Part shown: one piece after another, positions 6,820 through 62,775 of the stretch | Position numbering within the stretch: the stretch's first letter is position 1 | How the letters are laid out: each line of letters starts with the position of its first letter | From: Octopus sinensis | Lineage: Eukaryota | DNA: 64,000 bases | Assembly (NCBI RefSeq): GCF_006345805.1 | Contig: NC_043006.1 | Coordinates: 82,212,001 to 82,276,000 of the forward strand | Direction of reading: 5' to 3' | Notes under the pieces: model-generated | What the model was told of the DNA's origin: nothing | The model's database searches: none | What the model saw: only the letters and a program-made list of their open reading frames with translations | Program-made: the position numbers and the translations under genes

Positions 6820-6863
6820 GGCCAGAGTTCTTTCGTCACACTCCTGTGACCTCATCAGTGGTC
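6820..6863 (-). ncRNA. Minimal type-I hammerhead ribozyme motif
   Basis: gacca CUGAUGA g GUCAC aggagu GUGAC GAAA gaacUC uggcc. Confidence 0.7.
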
Positions 6864-7120
6864 CTTTACTTTCTTCTTTCTTATTTGCCTGTCTCTCCTT
6901 ACTAACAGTCAGCCATTTTGTATTTTGTATTCCTATTATATGTGTATATAAACAGGAGATACAAATATTACAGGCACTCCCCCCCACACACTAACTAAAT
7001 ATAAACACACATAGAGGTATACGCATGCGCAAATGAAGACACATACAATAGGAATACAAAATGCAAAATGGCTGACCGTTAGTAGGGAGAAACACGCAAA
7101 TAAGAAAGAAGAAAGCAAAG

Positions 7121-7164
7121 GACCACTGATGAGGTCACAGGAGTGTGACGAAAGAACTCTAGTC
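7121..7164 (+). ncRNA. Minimal type-I hammerhead ribozyme motif
   Basis: gacca CUGAUGA g GUCAC aggagu GUGAC GAAA gaacUC uaguc. Confidence 0.7.
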
Positions 7165-7394
7165 GAAATAAGATTAAGATTAATGTAAAAAGTGAATGAC
7201 GCTGAAGCAAAGTAACACCAAATATATAGTGGGTGTGTCTTTATTGGCTAAACTGGCAAAATGACTATTCCTAAATACAACAATATCTGTTTCAACACAC
7301 GATTTCATATAAAAAATCTTGCAAAACAAATATATATGTATATATATATATATATATATATATATATATATATATATATATATATATATATGAT

Positions 7395-7801
7395 TTTACT
7401 CTTTTACTTGTTTCAATCATTTGACTGCGGCCAAGCTGGACCACCATCGAGATAATCGACCCCAGGACTTATTCTTTGTAAGCCTAGTACTTATTGCATC
7501 GATCTCTTTTGCCGAACCGAACACCATCGGTTGTCAAGCGATGTTAGGGCACAAACACACACACACACACACAACACACACACACACACACACACACACA
7601 CACACACACACACACATATATATATATATATATATATATATATACACATATATACGACAGGCTTCTTTCAGTTTCTGCCTACCAAATCCACTCACAAGGC
7701 TTTGGTCGGCCCGAGGCTATAGTAGAAGACACTTGCCGAAAGTGCCACGAAGTGGGAATGGATCCGGAACCATGTGGCTGGTAAGCAAGCTACTTACCAC
7801 A
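7395..7801 (-). mobile_element. SINE family 3
   Basis: Reverse complement of the 5443 family with internal (CA)n(TA)n. Confidence 0.85.
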
Positions 7802-7916
7802 CACACACACACACACACAAACACACACACACACACACACACGCACGCACATAAACACACACACACACACACACACACGCACAAACATATACACACACAC
7901 ACACAAACACATGCAG

Positions 7917-9086
7917 TAGGGTGCGTAAAATATTTGAGGACAAGTTTATGCTTATAAAAAAACAGCTATATAATAACAGATAATAACTTTATTTATCACA
8001 AAATGCTATGAGGATAAAAATAAACCTTCTTTTCTATAATGTTATTTAATAAAGCTACCCTCAGCTTCAGCAACTGCTTCTATAGGAGATCTAAATCATG
8101 TACATGCTCGAATCAAGTGGTTCTGGTCCATTTCGGACATTACTCTGACTGTGGCAGCTTTTAAAGAATCTTTGCTGTTATGGGCATGTTCATTGACCTC
8201 TCTCTCAACAACGCTCCACATGTAATAATCCAATGGTTTGAGAAATTAGGAGGTTATGTGATCATGAAAAATTTCAGCCATGCATTCCTGTGTTACTGGA
8301 GCCATGTGTGATAGTGCAGAGCCTTACTGAAACACATATGCCCTTCCATTGCATACATTGTCTATCCAAGACTTAACAATTATTTCCAGGACCTCAATGT
8401 AGACAACCCCTAAAACCATGACATTTACATGAAATTTTGTGTGCATAACACTTGGAACTTCAGAAGGATCTGCACATAACCATCTGTCATTTCTTCTGTT
8501 AACTTTTTGATTTTGGTCGAAGTTTTTCTCGTTTGAGAAAAATCAAATCACATCTTCTGGATTTTTCAGTTTGTTTAAGAGCCTTTTAGATCCGTTGTAG
8601 TGACTTTCTTTTGCTTTTTCTGATAAATTGTCCTTTCCTCATTATATAAAACTTATATCTGATATCTTCGTGGACAACTTTTCTGACTGTTCCTTCTGAC
8701 ACATGGAGATTTTTTGCAATTGGCCTCATACACTTTCTGGGATTGTAATCAACGGTCTGTTGAACTTGCTGGATAAATTCAAGTATTCTGATGATTTCAG
8801 AGTGTTTAGAATGCTTTTTATGCTTTGATACTAGTGATACATTTCCATCTTCAGTCTCTAGCTACTTACAAACTTTGTAGACGAAAGATCTGGCAACTTT
8901 TAAAAATCGAGATATTTCTAAATATCTATACTCAGCCTTTATAACCACAATGACAGCATGCCTCTTCACTTCTTGAGTAAGCTGAGGGTCTGCCATTATT
9001 ATTTTCTGAAACAAAGATATACTGAGTAAGCCAAAAATACAGCAATGACCCAAAAAGGTATGTCTTCAAATACCTTACGCACCCTG
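7917..9086 (-). mobile_element. Tc1/mariner-superfamily transposon (maT/DD37D-like) with dead transposase
   Basis: About 26-bp imperfect TIRs (agggtgcgtaa..tatttga.gaca); reads MADPQLTQEVKRHAVIV, FFSNEKNF and KPLDYYMWSVVERE with stops. Confidence 0.85.
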
Positions 9087-59334: not shown

Positions 59335-59423
59335 AACCCTGAAGAGATCTCTAGCTTTCAAATTCATTATGCAATTATTAATTGTAAAATGAATGAAGGT
59401 AGATATTGAAACGATCGTAGGCC
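59335..59423 (+). ncRNA. Hammerhead motif with long stem II
   Basis: cc CUGAAGA GAU.UCUA...AUUCAUU...AAUGAAU...UAGA.AUU GAAA CGAUCG UA gg. Confidence 0.65.
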
Positions 59424-60108
59424 TTATGTAATCGACAGTTATGTAAATAAATTCAATTTACTGTATTCAAACTCTCCATTTTCTTTATGTTATGCCATAT
59501 ATATATATATATATATATATATAATATATATATAATATATATATATTATATATATATATATTATATATTATATATATATATATATGTGTGTATATATATA
59601 TACGTATATATTTATATCTATATATATATATATATATATATATATTATATATTATATATATACGTATATAAATATATTTATGAGTGTGTGTGTTTGCATG
59701 CGAAAGTGTGTATGTGTATATGTATGTATGCATGTATGCATGTATGTATGTACGTACGTATGTATGTATTATATGTGTGTACTTATAATGCATATACACC
59801 CATATTCATATGCATACACACAAACTTATATATATACATATATATATATAGTCATACCTACATACATACATACATACATACATACACACATATACATATT
59901 TAAAGACTGAAGCTTCCTGGATCGTTACTCTGATTTTCCAAGCGATTACAGAAATGAAGCTGCTAAAATATTAATAAACAGCGTCGAAAGAGAATTAGTG
60001 ATAAATATTTGATTCTTGCAATAACAACAAGAAAAACTTACAAAATGCATCACACATTAATCAATTCATTTATCATGTGCAAAGCACGCGATATGTTCAC
60101 ATACATGC

Positions 60109-60527
60109 GATATTTTCGGTTTGACCAGCAGTTTTTTAAGATAATTTCCACGTAACTAAACACTTTTAAACTTCGTATACTGGTAGAATGTGTTTATAAA
60201 ACATCTTTTTCTCTTGGCTTTATTGAGAAAATTCTATAGTTTGTAACATATTTGTTGTTTTTTTTTCTTCAATTTCTGCAATTTCAACCAATCAAAAAAA
60301 ACATTCTGTGCCGTATGAATATGTCCCTCGTTTAAGAAACAGATTGGGTTTATTTACATTTGTGAAGAAAAAAAGATACCCTCCCCCCCCCACCCCTAAC
60401 CCTAACCCTAACTAACCCTAACCCTAAAACAGATCGAAATGCAATAGATTGATACTGGGGTCATAATTATGGGTGACAATTTCATATGACACCGCTAGAA
60501 AAAACTGCCGTTCAAACCGAAAAGATC
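60109..60527. mobile_element. TIR element with internal (CCCTAA)n
   Basis: About 29-bp inverted ends gat.ttttcggtttga.c.gcagtttttt; telomere-type repeats at 60393-60426; partial copy at about 16600-16720. Confidence 0.75.
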
Positions 60528-61373
60528 CAAAACATGCGATACTTTTGTGTCTTCAGTGTCGTACGTATAAAACATACAAAACAAGAACGGGGACAATTAT
60601 CAATAGCTTTAGTGAAAGTTTTTTTCTTTTTCATCAAAATATGTTCGCCTTTCAGGATATGACAAATCCATAATATGGAAATGTGGAAACAAACTAGTGG
60701 GTAGTTGTAAATTCCTCAATAAATAGCAACGGAAGTGTCTACATGAATTTAATCCCAATTTTTTTGTTCAAAATTGCAAAGGGCTATAATAGGATGTAAT
60801 ACATTTTCTAGACTAAAAAACACGTGTCATTGAAACATTAATTCAAGGAGACATGTGTTCTACATTCGACTGTATAGTTTTATAATCATTAATATCATCA
60901 TCCTTTCAATTCCAGATATATTCGGTCAATGAAGTGACGAAGCGTCTTTCTGAGCGTCTTAATGTGTAAATATATTGGAGAATGTTTTTAACACGTTGAC
61001 TGCCAACTACGAGTTATCTCGTAGTTGGCAATCTATACAATTTTGCCAGGTACGATCATACTCGTGGAGGTCTATTTTATTGTAACGCCTAAAATGAACT
61101 GGCGTCTGGAACTAACATTGTGAGTGTGTTGTGGAAACACTAAAGACACGCTTTATTTGCCCAATGATACGAGTTAACTCATACATGGCACCTGCCAGGA
61201 AATATATTTGGAAAAATATATAATATATATATATATATATATATATATATATATTATATATATATATATATATATATATATATTAATATATATATATATG
61301 GACATGCACAAATTCTGTAAGTTCAAGACCTTTCATCGGATCTCCAGGAATCGAACTTTCTTCAATGCAGTTA

Positions 61374-62631
61374 CGAGGGGCGTTCAATAAGTAATGCCCC
61401 TGACCCACTTCCCATAGCAGTAGAGCCACGACACTTGGCACAGTTATTAGTCTTTTCCTACATAGGAACTACTCAGAGTTATGCATTTCACCCATCGTTT
61501 GATACAGCTCTGGAGACCGTTTTTGTAGAAGACCCCCAGCTTGGTCCTCCAACCACGACGTGACTTCAGAAATCAAGGCTGCATCATCTGAGAAACGCTT
61601 TCCTTTCAAAATCAACTTCATGGCTGGGAAGAGGTGAAAATCAGAGGGTGCAAGGGGAGGAGTTCATAGCTGCACGCCTGTGCTTCTGATCTGGCGACAC
61701 GCGAGTTGTGGACCGGAGCGTTGTCCTGCAGGAGGAGGATGCCATTGCTGATCTTGCCCCGCATCTTGATTTTGATAGCTTCTCTTAATTTCCTCAAAAG
61801 TGAAGCATAATAGGCTCCTGTAATTGTGGTACCCTTTGCCAGGAAATCTGTCATCACTACTCCGTCCTGGTCCCAGAAGACTGTGAGCATAACCTTGTCA
61901 GCGGAGGGCTGCACCCTTGCCTTCTTTGGAGGAGGTGAGTCACGGTGCTTTCACTGCATTGACTGGGCTTTAGTCTATGGATCATAGTGATGGACCCAGG
62001 TTTTATCCTGTGTGATCAGTCTTTTGAAAAATTTTGACTCGTCTTCTTGGCACATCTCCAAATTCATCCTCGAGCACTCGATGCGTTCTTGCTTCTGGAA
62101 AGGTGTGAGCAACCTAGAAATCCATCTGGCAGACACCTTTTGCATATGCAAATGGTCATGAATGATAGTTTCCACAGACCCGGTACTAATCTTGACCTTA
62201 TGGGCTATTTGGCGAATAGTTATGCGTTGACCTTCCGAAATGGCAGCCTCAACTTGACGGACAGACGTCTCATCAACGGCAGAAGGGGGCGACCAGATCT
62301 GGGAGCTGTTTCCACAGAGTTCCGACTATGTTTGAATTCACAATGCCAGCGTTTTACAAGGTCATATGATGGAGCATCATCACCATAAGTTACTTTCATT
62401 TCATCAAAAGTCTCCCGTGGTGTGCGTCCTTTCAAATACAAAAACCAGATCACTGCTCGACACTCAACAGGCTCCATTTCACACTTGACTCAGTTCAAAC
62501 ACCTGTAAATCAGAAACCACAATTAGTTCGCCACCTAATCTATAGAGGTATAAATAAGTGCACATGCAAAGTTTTAGCTAGATCAAACAACTGCAAGTGG
62601 GTCAGGGGCATTACTTATTGAACGCCCCTCG
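61374..62631 (-). mobile_element. Full-length mariner (DD34D type) with frameshifted transposase
   Basis: Perfect 37-bp TIRs cgaggggcgttcaataagtaatgcccctgacccactt; TA TSD; WISRLLT, LITQDKTWVHHYDP, KVMLTVFWD and LLQDNAPVH motifs. Confidence 0.95.
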
Positions 62632-62691
62632 TAAACTCACACCCTCATTTGTATCTACCCCTTTTGATGTTTGGGAATCTCTGATGTTTTT

Positions 62692-62775
62692 TCGGCTGAC
62701 GAGTACGAGCCATCTATATTTACTGCATTTTTTGTAGCTTATTAAAGATGTCCTCGTACGAAACAATTGTACCGA
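62692..62775 (+). ncRNA. Canonical type-I hammerhead ribozyme
   Basis: ucgg CUGACGA GUACGAG...CUCGUAC GAAA CAAUUG UA ccga; all stems perfect. Confidence 0.9.

Follow-up and report, generated by a model that had tools for sequence, protein, structure and literature searches.

A 64,000-nucleotide (nt) stretch of the Octopus sinensis genome (assembly GCF_006345805.1, contig NC_043006.1, positions 82,212,001 to 82,276,000; hereafter the window) contains, besides 16 hammerhead ribozyme motifs of the ordinary type-I order, a second hammerhead class in which the blocks are permuted and which a preliminary description of the same sequence had missed. We consider it likely that the window collects the 5'-truncated 3' ends of many families of Penelope-like elements (PLEs), with 16 type-I and seven permuted hammerheads, and that the latter, judged by their sequence, would self-cleave with a backbone left open between A9 and G10.1. 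The surrounding genome is large (2.72 Gb), AT-rich and laden with microsatellites. Coordinates are those of the window, L-numbers denote other stretches of the same genome, and statements about published work refer to the parts of each source that were covered.

A permuted hammerhead with a probably opened core

The permuted class is represented in the window by seven copies from four families, three of them intact, with the block order cleavage site-GAAA-CUGANGA (S-G-C):

28988..29061 (-), intact copy with the order II(5')-S-G-C; cleavage predicted 3' of C 29039 (AUC); stem II GGCUG/CAGCC, stems I and III of 6 bp each, an extra helix and a K-turn-like loop; belongs to a young family with tandem units of 646-678 nt, element at 28903-29429
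29617..29689 (-), intact copy; cleavage predicted 3' of C 29668 (GUC); K-turn-like loop, with GGCCU/AGGCC as stem II; element at ~29524-30040
33296..33372 (-), intact copy; cleavage predicted 3' of C 33346 (GUC); internal loop resembling loop E, with GAAGG/CCUUC as stem II; element at ~33049-33715, in tandem units of 807-824 nt
30394..30466 (-), decayed member of the 29617 family, stems I and II both with mismatches; element at 30299-30581
27683..27762 (-), decayed copy in which GAAA has become CAAA, from a subfamily of 33296; its stems are compensatory; element at 27432-28071
5241..5316 (+), decayed copy of a family whose consensus is intact, with GAGCA/UGCUC as stem II; element at ~5226-5413
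30628..30790 (+), second member of the 5241 family, from which the CUGANGA block is missing through deletion

The CUGANGA boxes lie at 5310, 27689, 28994, 29623, 30400 and 33302, with GAAA 28-29 nt upstream (27689 has lost the G) and the NUH triplet a further ~15-17 nt before GAAA. Stem I forms between the bases after NUH and those before CUGANGA, and stem III between the bases after GAA and those before NUH. The partner of the strand before GAAA, which completes stem II, is located upstream of the cleavage site, so that the backbone is open between A9 and G10.1. From 5' to 3', the RNA consists of the stem II 5' strand, the extra helix with its internal loop, the stem III 3' strand, the NUH site, the stem I 3' strand, a linker, the stem II 3' strand, GAAA, the stem III 5' strand, the extra-helix partner and finally the stem I 5' strand with CUGANGA; the linker from stem I to stem II measures 1-5 nt across 15 sequence clusters. 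Read in this way, the layout would be a circular permutation of the CSG type that is opened inside the CUGANGA/stem II block. A search for type CSG itself gave 0 matches in the window, CUGANGA coming last in the permuted class though the cyclic order is the same, and Rfam did not flag a hammerhead in eight loci with the permuted motif.

On the far side of stem III are an internal loop and a fourth helix, which extends stem III and links to the ends of both stems I and II; its register varies and it was left out of the alignment scoring. Of 67 distinct copies, 26 fit a K-turn and 21 a loop E, and none fit both, when scored against consensus motifs without a null model. The fourth helix, by tying the far ends of stems I and II, may replace the usual loop-loop contact.

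Two other assignments were rejected. In a type II (GSC) reading no stem I forms, a G follows the apparent hairpin in two families, and the GSC pattern has 0 matches. For a plain CSG ribozyme that uses a second, degenerate upstream core, the base on the 5' side of G10.1 was examined, and it is A in only 3 of 31 copies. A further unrelated permuted family occurs at L101:2041-2132 (-), where a 7-bp upstream stem II is set at a longer offset (42 nt).

Frequency and covariation of the permuted motif

The intact S-G-C pattern has three matches in the window against 0.05 in shuffles, and a version of it has four against 0.04; with an upstream stem II of at least five Watson-Crick pairs added, 200 shuffles gave 0. 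Across the whole genome a loose permuted pattern matches 7,624 times, compared with 74 for a reversed-pattern control. Forty matches were fetched from among the first 100 in the list, with diversity judged by eye as the criterion of choice: an upstream stem II partner with at least four Watson-Crick pairs is present 21-29 nt before the cleavage site in 25 of them, while a downstream partner of that strength right after CUGANGA, where type SGC has its stem II strand (within 1-2 nt), is present in 2 and an equal-width upstream control window yields 1. The base H is not G in 38 of the 40. A metagenome scan with a tighter permuted pattern returned three matches, none with stems, which we read as chance.

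Stems I, II and III covary across the permuted families. When 104 permuted matches were grouped at 80% identity, 15 of the 19 resulting clusters had the upstream stem II, none of these with more than three downstream Watson-Crick pairs; the other four look truncated, decayed or due to chance. An 18-row MAFFT alignment of one clade has pairing in 98.3% of its cells, compared with at most 48% in slid controls; both partners differ in 10 of the 13 pairs, and covariation scores 0.68 against 0.285. Scoring did not extend to two further MAFFT alignments, in which the K-turn clade was misaligned. In cross-family chimeras all three stems form in just 7 of 210. Through the upstream strand, G10.1-C11.1 is kept in all 31 selected copies, and the base after A9 is A in 27 of the 31; PLE hammerheads are known to conserve a base that bulges out between A9 and 10.1 (PMC4209133).

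Points against a self-cleaving opened core, and alternative readings

Several observations weigh against the reading proposed here. Fifteen of the 40 fetched matches are without the upstream stem, most of them truncated, inverted or decayed by eye; the rows of the alignment and the 31 selected copies had to pass stems I and III and share descent, which makes the significance from the shuffle control too high; and minimum-free-energy folding, which excludes pseudoknots, does not recover the permuted structure. This folding result, high-copy repeats that inflate the counts and an upstream partner that is the best of ~12 positions might indicate that the permuted pairing is an artefact of descriptor freedom, simple sequence and the shared ancestry of a few repeats. 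However, the shuffle, reversed-pattern, control-window, slid-pair and chimera controls all fall far below what is observed, and unrelated families met by chance in the flanks (L033, L089 and L101) follow the same upstream stem II rule. An artefact is largely refuted by these results and is very improbable.

Further objections concern the choice of strand. In one clade, that with the loop E, the G-rich strand downstream can also form stem II after a 1-nt bulge, with 93.1% of cells pairing and G10.1-C11.1 in 18 of 18 rows, and such a bulge is usual in PLEs; once G-U pairs are counted, at least four downstream pairs form in 20 of the 40 fetched matches. In known hammerhead alignments no more than 1-2 nt separate CUGANGA from its stems (Eckert et al., PMC10085705), which leaves the activity of an opened core without precedent in the literature covered. 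The motif could accordingly be an ordinary type-SGC ribozyme, with stem II made by the G-rich strand after CUGANGA and the upstream strand serving as an inhibitor or switch until it is removed. We think this unlikely: the loop-E downstream stem is wobble-rich (33 of 72 G-U) with one of four pairs compensatory, compared with 98.6% pairing and three of four upstream, and the K-turn clade (28994 and 29623) and the Naiad motif described below have no downstream partner, with duplex energies of +0.6 and +1.8 kcal/mol downstream versus -6.8 and -7.5 kcal/mol upstream. In all 15 clusters the upstream helix is Watson-Crick and compensatory.

A last group of objections concerns catalysis and the link to PLEs. 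Published metazoan PLE hammerheads cleave poorly in vitro (PMC4209133), eight of nine Xenopus retrozyme dimers did not cleave (bioRxiv 10.64898/2026.07.22.740005), the permuted window families were traced to no open reading frame (ORF), and BLASTP of a reverse transcriptase (RT) fragment from L252 against a Neptune-like ORF was not significant (E 0.08). It is conceivable, if improbable, that the fold is real and catalysis has been lost, leaving a hammerhead-derived recognition or packaging signal for the PLE RT. Such a signal would agree with the low activity in vitro, with the proliferation of Naiads though a canonical hammerhead was not found in them, and with most copies reading through the predicted cut site. 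Read-through is, however, also expected with a circular template, and CUGANGA, GAAA, A15.1-U16.1, G10.1-C11.1 and an H other than G recur in unrelated families and, judged by eye, in different phyla, as would befit the self-cleaving opened hammerhead that we favour.

Host elements of the permuted families

A first look gave 1,602-4,755 candidates for each of the four permuted window families; these are not copy numbers. The elements end at (TA)n, are 5'-truncated and occur in non-coding head-to-tail arrays with units of ~323, 646-678 and 807-824 nt, and their complete tandem units are without a GIY-YIG/RT ORF. Non-coding head-to-tail repeats with one ribozyme per unit were found in L080, L088, L036, L045, L063 and L137 and at 51367-52440 of the window, and the L080 and L088 arrays continue through the TATA tract at which single copies end. 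Proximity to (TA)n is pronounced, with five of six permuted window copies within 200 nt compared with 21% of random positions, and in L073 a permuted-element copy is inserted at TATA within a PLE ORF.

The permuted layout in Naiad elements

Naiads are PLEs reported to be without a canonical hammerhead, some being flagged 'HHR_core' or 'HHR_half_core' (Craig et al. 2021, PMC8557442). The last 330-400 nt of 51 records from the supplement were read by eye rather than by script, and nine of these 3' ends, from a ctenophore, cnidarians, a crustacean and octopus, show the opened layout. They are Bfor (stem I only 2 bp), 3_Chem, Amil, Aacu (two mismatches), Anas, 2_Movir, EuTe, Obim and Ovul, and the unopened CSG type, with block C unbroken, is seen by eye in six nematode Naiads (1-3_Nbra, Hcon, Hpol and Asuum). 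The taxa that we attach to the codes Amil, Aacu, Anas, Movir, EuTe, Hcon and Asuum are presumed ones. In other Naiad 3' ends of the supplement (e.g. CGi, Sglo, Skow and Pfla) this position is occupied by conserved motifs that are not hammerheads.

Among the records flagged 'HHR_half_core' is the consensus of the Octopus Naiad, and it has exactly the permuted layout. Its motif has 606 near-exact matches in the genome against 0 for the control and passes the descriptor (stems I and III) nine times in 15 fetched loci. In L252, remnants of the RT C-terminus lie ~0.9 kb upstream of a Naiad-type motif on the same strand (the Naiad assignment is by eye). An upstream walk from the L235 copy, which is truncated, met no ORF, and RT remnants were seen in four of eight further copies. 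The window families share the topology of the Naiad motif and differ from it in sequence. As none of them has an ORF, their link to Naiads rests on topology, and a Naiad may be what mobilises them.

On balance we slightly favour a joint reading in which Naiads from ctenophores to octopuses would carry an ancient, active, monomeric, pseudoknotted hammerhead that is opened at A9/G10.1, braced by a K-turn or loop E and outside the six permutations, with nematodes keeping CSG and dozens of non-coding retrozyme families having adopted the layout, at least 7,600 copies of it in one genome.

Type-I hammerheads of the window

The preliminary description had listed 16 hammerhead positions, and the motif is present at every one:

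6634..7330 (strand.), inverted pair of type-I hammerhead pseudo-LTRs (pseudo-long terminal repeats), cores 6858 minus and 7126 plus; the family flanks a PLE RT/GIY-YIG ORF in L188
11882..12000 (+), type-I hammerhead; 85-nt stem II region, ACAGCUGU
13973..14056 (-), type-I hammerhead of an abundant family; stem II region of 54 nt, ACAUAUGU
24008..24180 (+), type-I hammerhead with a wobble palindrome and a stem II region of 140 nt
25802..25842 (-), minimal type-I motif, its core altered
31192..31560 (strand.), inverted pair with ACCGGU and a U3-A8 / U3-G8 core; stem II is weak at its base
38125..38656 (strand.), two minimal type-I motifs in inverted orientation; the core at 38219 (minus) is intact, that at 38562 (plus) has lost GAAA
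51367..52440 (-), tandem non-coding repeat, unit ~533 nt; type-I hammerheads at 51731 and 52262, ACAAUUGU; retrozyme-like
56441..56480 (+), minimal type-I hammerhead; bulged A, 3-nt loop II, ACGU
57907..57990 (+), type-I hammerhead; AUGGCCAU
59335..59425 (+), type-I hammerhead; ACGAUCGU, G-U at the stem II base
62632..62950 (+), PLE-like 3' end with its type-I hammerhead at 62696; in this family the 3' end is fixed and enters (TA)n

In the type-I order CUGANGA ... GAAA ... UH, the CUGANGA and GAAA core is unaltered in 12 of the 16 sites; 31470 has the published U3-A8 variant, and the three cores already described as mutated (25802, 31240 and 38558) are indeed altered. The sites fall into 12 families where about 10 had been counted. 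Stem III is, as proposed, mostly self-complementary: it is a perfect palindrome in ten sites and a wobble-paired one in three (24008, 25802 and 38179), with 6820 and 7121 non-palindromic and 38558 broken as the exceptions. The 8-mer palindromes have self-duplex energies of -6.4 to -11.3 kcal/mol versus +2.4 to +4.7 kcal/mol as hairpins, a difference that fits the requirement of the dimer model. This supports the view that the type-I motifs can pair as dimers through a short palindromic stem III, in which state they would be predicted to cleave.

Dinucleotide shuffling, the check proposed at the outset, leaves the motifs well above chance: a strict descriptor finds seven cores in the window against a mean of 0.08-0.085 (maximum 2) in 200 shuffles, and seven against 0.165 when a 1-nt bulge is permitted. 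Genome-wide, a long-stem-II type-I pattern has 10,509 matches compared with five for its reversed-pattern control, and ~83 of the 100 listed have, by eye, a Watson-Crick palindrome centre, though few families are represented. The density of one motif per 4 kb holds inside the window and reflects a local richness above the average, as 39 other 10-kb stretches of the genome gave six matches, three of them in the stretch adjoining the window, against 0-3 in shuffles. Among the 150 Rfam rows listed, of 187 for the window, there was no hammerhead family. Several unrelated families (13973, 51657, 57907, 59335 and 62692; L022, L122, L123 and L130) have in common a stem II region of ~42-62 nt and an 8-nt palindrome, and most of these regions fold as an irregular hairpin.

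The abutment of (TA)n that had been noted is borne out, with (TA)4 within 300 nt downstream of 12 of the 16 sites (three core positions being approximate) compared with 28% of random positions. Among 30 loci of the 62692 family the 3' end is fixed and runs into (TA)n, 5' truncation is variable, and 13 of 29 loci have an inverted, tail-less copy which, where inspected, ends ~40 nt past the ribozyme; the window itself has three inverted pairs of type-I motifs. In the window the 62692 element is split by a mariner transposase remnant (PF01359; 61618-62388, -), with its upstream piece at 61293-61373. A truncated 5' end, an inverted 5' copy and a 3' tail constitute PLE anatomy (PMC8557442), which the 62692 family matches. 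PLE-type, dimer-forming hammerheads inserted at (TA)n are supported by the sequence.

A check for longer copies linked to Penelope RT/GIY-YIG ORFs had been proposed, and such a link was obtained for the 6820/7121 pair, which recurs as repeats of 83-93% identity on both sides of an ORF in L188. Similarity of this ORF to PLE RT is weak (24%, E 5e-5) and its GIY-YIG match is below the cut-off (E 0.0027). A position in a pseudo-LTR beside an RT and GIY-YIG ORF has been traced for this one of the 12 type-I families. The claim of non-autonomous families is therefore only partly right. The repeat at 51367-52440 is a non-coding tandem, more copies of which occur in the neighbouring stretch L137. Because 6820/7121 flank a PLE ORF and the 62692 family shows PLE-type ends, many type-I sites are probably truncated ends of coding elements, one family in 12 having been traced to an ORF.

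Another PLE of this genome is a young, Neptune-like element in L181 (G000:C12:27284001-27294000) with 4.4-kb tandems, a 784-amino acid (aa) RT/GIY-YIG frame and an overlapping upstream frame; its hammerhead is a U3-A8 type-I motif with ACCGGU and does not have the permuted layout. Five window palindromes had no match in the covered part of the PMC8557442 supplement, where line breaks may hide matches.

A model for the permuted ribozyme

The motifs themselves, their covarying pairs, the anatomy of the elements and the RT remnants linked to them are observed, and our model builds on these. In it, the permuted ribozyme would work as a monomer because its stem III is a genuine helix of 4-6 bp. Cleavage would occur only after CUGANGA, the last-made piece, has been transcribed, and read-through transcripts of tandem units would be cut to unit length. 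Unit-length RNAs would likely be circularised by a host RtcB-type ligase, as demonstrated in vitro for other retrozymes (PMC7229834). A PLE RT/GIY-YIG protein, probably that of a Naiad for the permuted class, may then copy the RNA from a nick in (TA)n, using as priming site the TATA tract that the element itself carries 90-190 nt beyond the ribozyme. Such copying would keep the 3' end fixed while the 5' end is truncated to a variable degree, and it would yield tandems longer than one unit; for copies with read-through of the cut site, the template would have to be uncut or circular.

Comparison with known hammerheads and retrozymes

The type-I hammerheads of PLE pseudo-LTRs (PMC4209133) resemble the 16 sites in core, palindromic stem III, the bulge before 10.1, the U3-A8 variant, opposite-strand pairs 100-700 bp apart and truncated single copies. 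Unlike those, with helices of 6-8 bp, several families here have a stem II region of 51-62 nt (up to 140 nt). As the association of type-I hammerheads with PLEs is already in print (PMC4209133), along with the retrozyme argument (bioRxiv 10.64898/2026.07.22.740005), the type-I motifs are a dense but ordinary case of it. The permuted class falls outside what PMC4209133 covers.

The closest counterparts of the permuted class are the SGC/CSG hammerheads of Eckert et al. (2023, PMC10085705), which have the same cyclic order C-S-G, a pseudoknotted core and a short linker between stems I and II. In contrast to these, block C of the permuted class is split, CUGANGA coming last and its stem II strand first, an arrangement excluded by an assumption of the six-permutation scheme; past stem III comes an additional helix, whose loop is K-turn-like or loop-E-like; and the host is an animal genome with thousands of copies, whereas SGC/CSG hammerheads were reported only from metatranscriptomes and metagenomes. 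Type CSG had been reported from only two metagenomic sequences (PMC10085705), and six nematode Naiad records in the PMC8557442 supplement display it by eye.

Naiads (PMC8557442) and the permuted families share a preference for (TA)n, and the Octopus consensus has the same layout; the window families differ in having no ORF and in sequence. Craig et al. left the hammerhead structure in Naiads without resolution (PMC8557442). Non-LTR retrozymes, proposed to be non-autonomous PLE derivatives, are likewise non-coding tandem units of 320-830 nt with one ribozyme each (PMC7229834; bioRxiv 10.64898/2026.07.22.740005). They are defined by a type-I hammerhead, which the repeat at 51367-52440 has and the permuted families do not. 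A literature search that included the covered parts of PMC3088659, PMC10162972 and PMC13725137, with subscription papers and some supplements outside its scope, found no account of the opened layout or of permuted PLE hammerheads.

Other features of the window

A 143-aa frame at 32512-32943 (+) has no Pfam match, and its Atlas look-alikes are animal clusters at 0.96; we take it to resemble the restriction-like endonuclease end of R4/NeSL-type non-LTR elements. Two LINE RT remnants, 50202-51376 and 56627-57779, are 90% identical and presumably CR1/L2-like, and fragments at 5892-6449 (+) and 12868-13533 (-) are assumed to resemble Helitron PIF1 helicase and N-terminal regions. The window further contains a tandem array at 54827-55808 with ~158-nt units of 91-94% identity, and an abundant SINE-like family with an internal microsatellite (5430-5800, 7394-7803, 19150-19541, 22734-23059, 28135-28539, 35362-36190 and others).

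Implications

If the permuted ribozymes cleave, they would fill the reported gap of hammerhead-less Naiads and make the role of the ribozyme in PLE mobility testable there. Cleavage would also break the stated assumption that the CUGANGA/stem II block is uninterruptible and add a layout that the Rfam scans made here do not flag. A monomeric ribozyme whose catalytic strand is made last would, provided that it cleaves, be useful for engineering. Non-circular permutations, found so far in hosts without names, would under the same condition be placed in named animal retroelements with many covarying examples. Should the Naiad-wide reading be true, non-circular hammerhead permutations would be a common feature of animal genomes rather than a metatranscriptome rarity.

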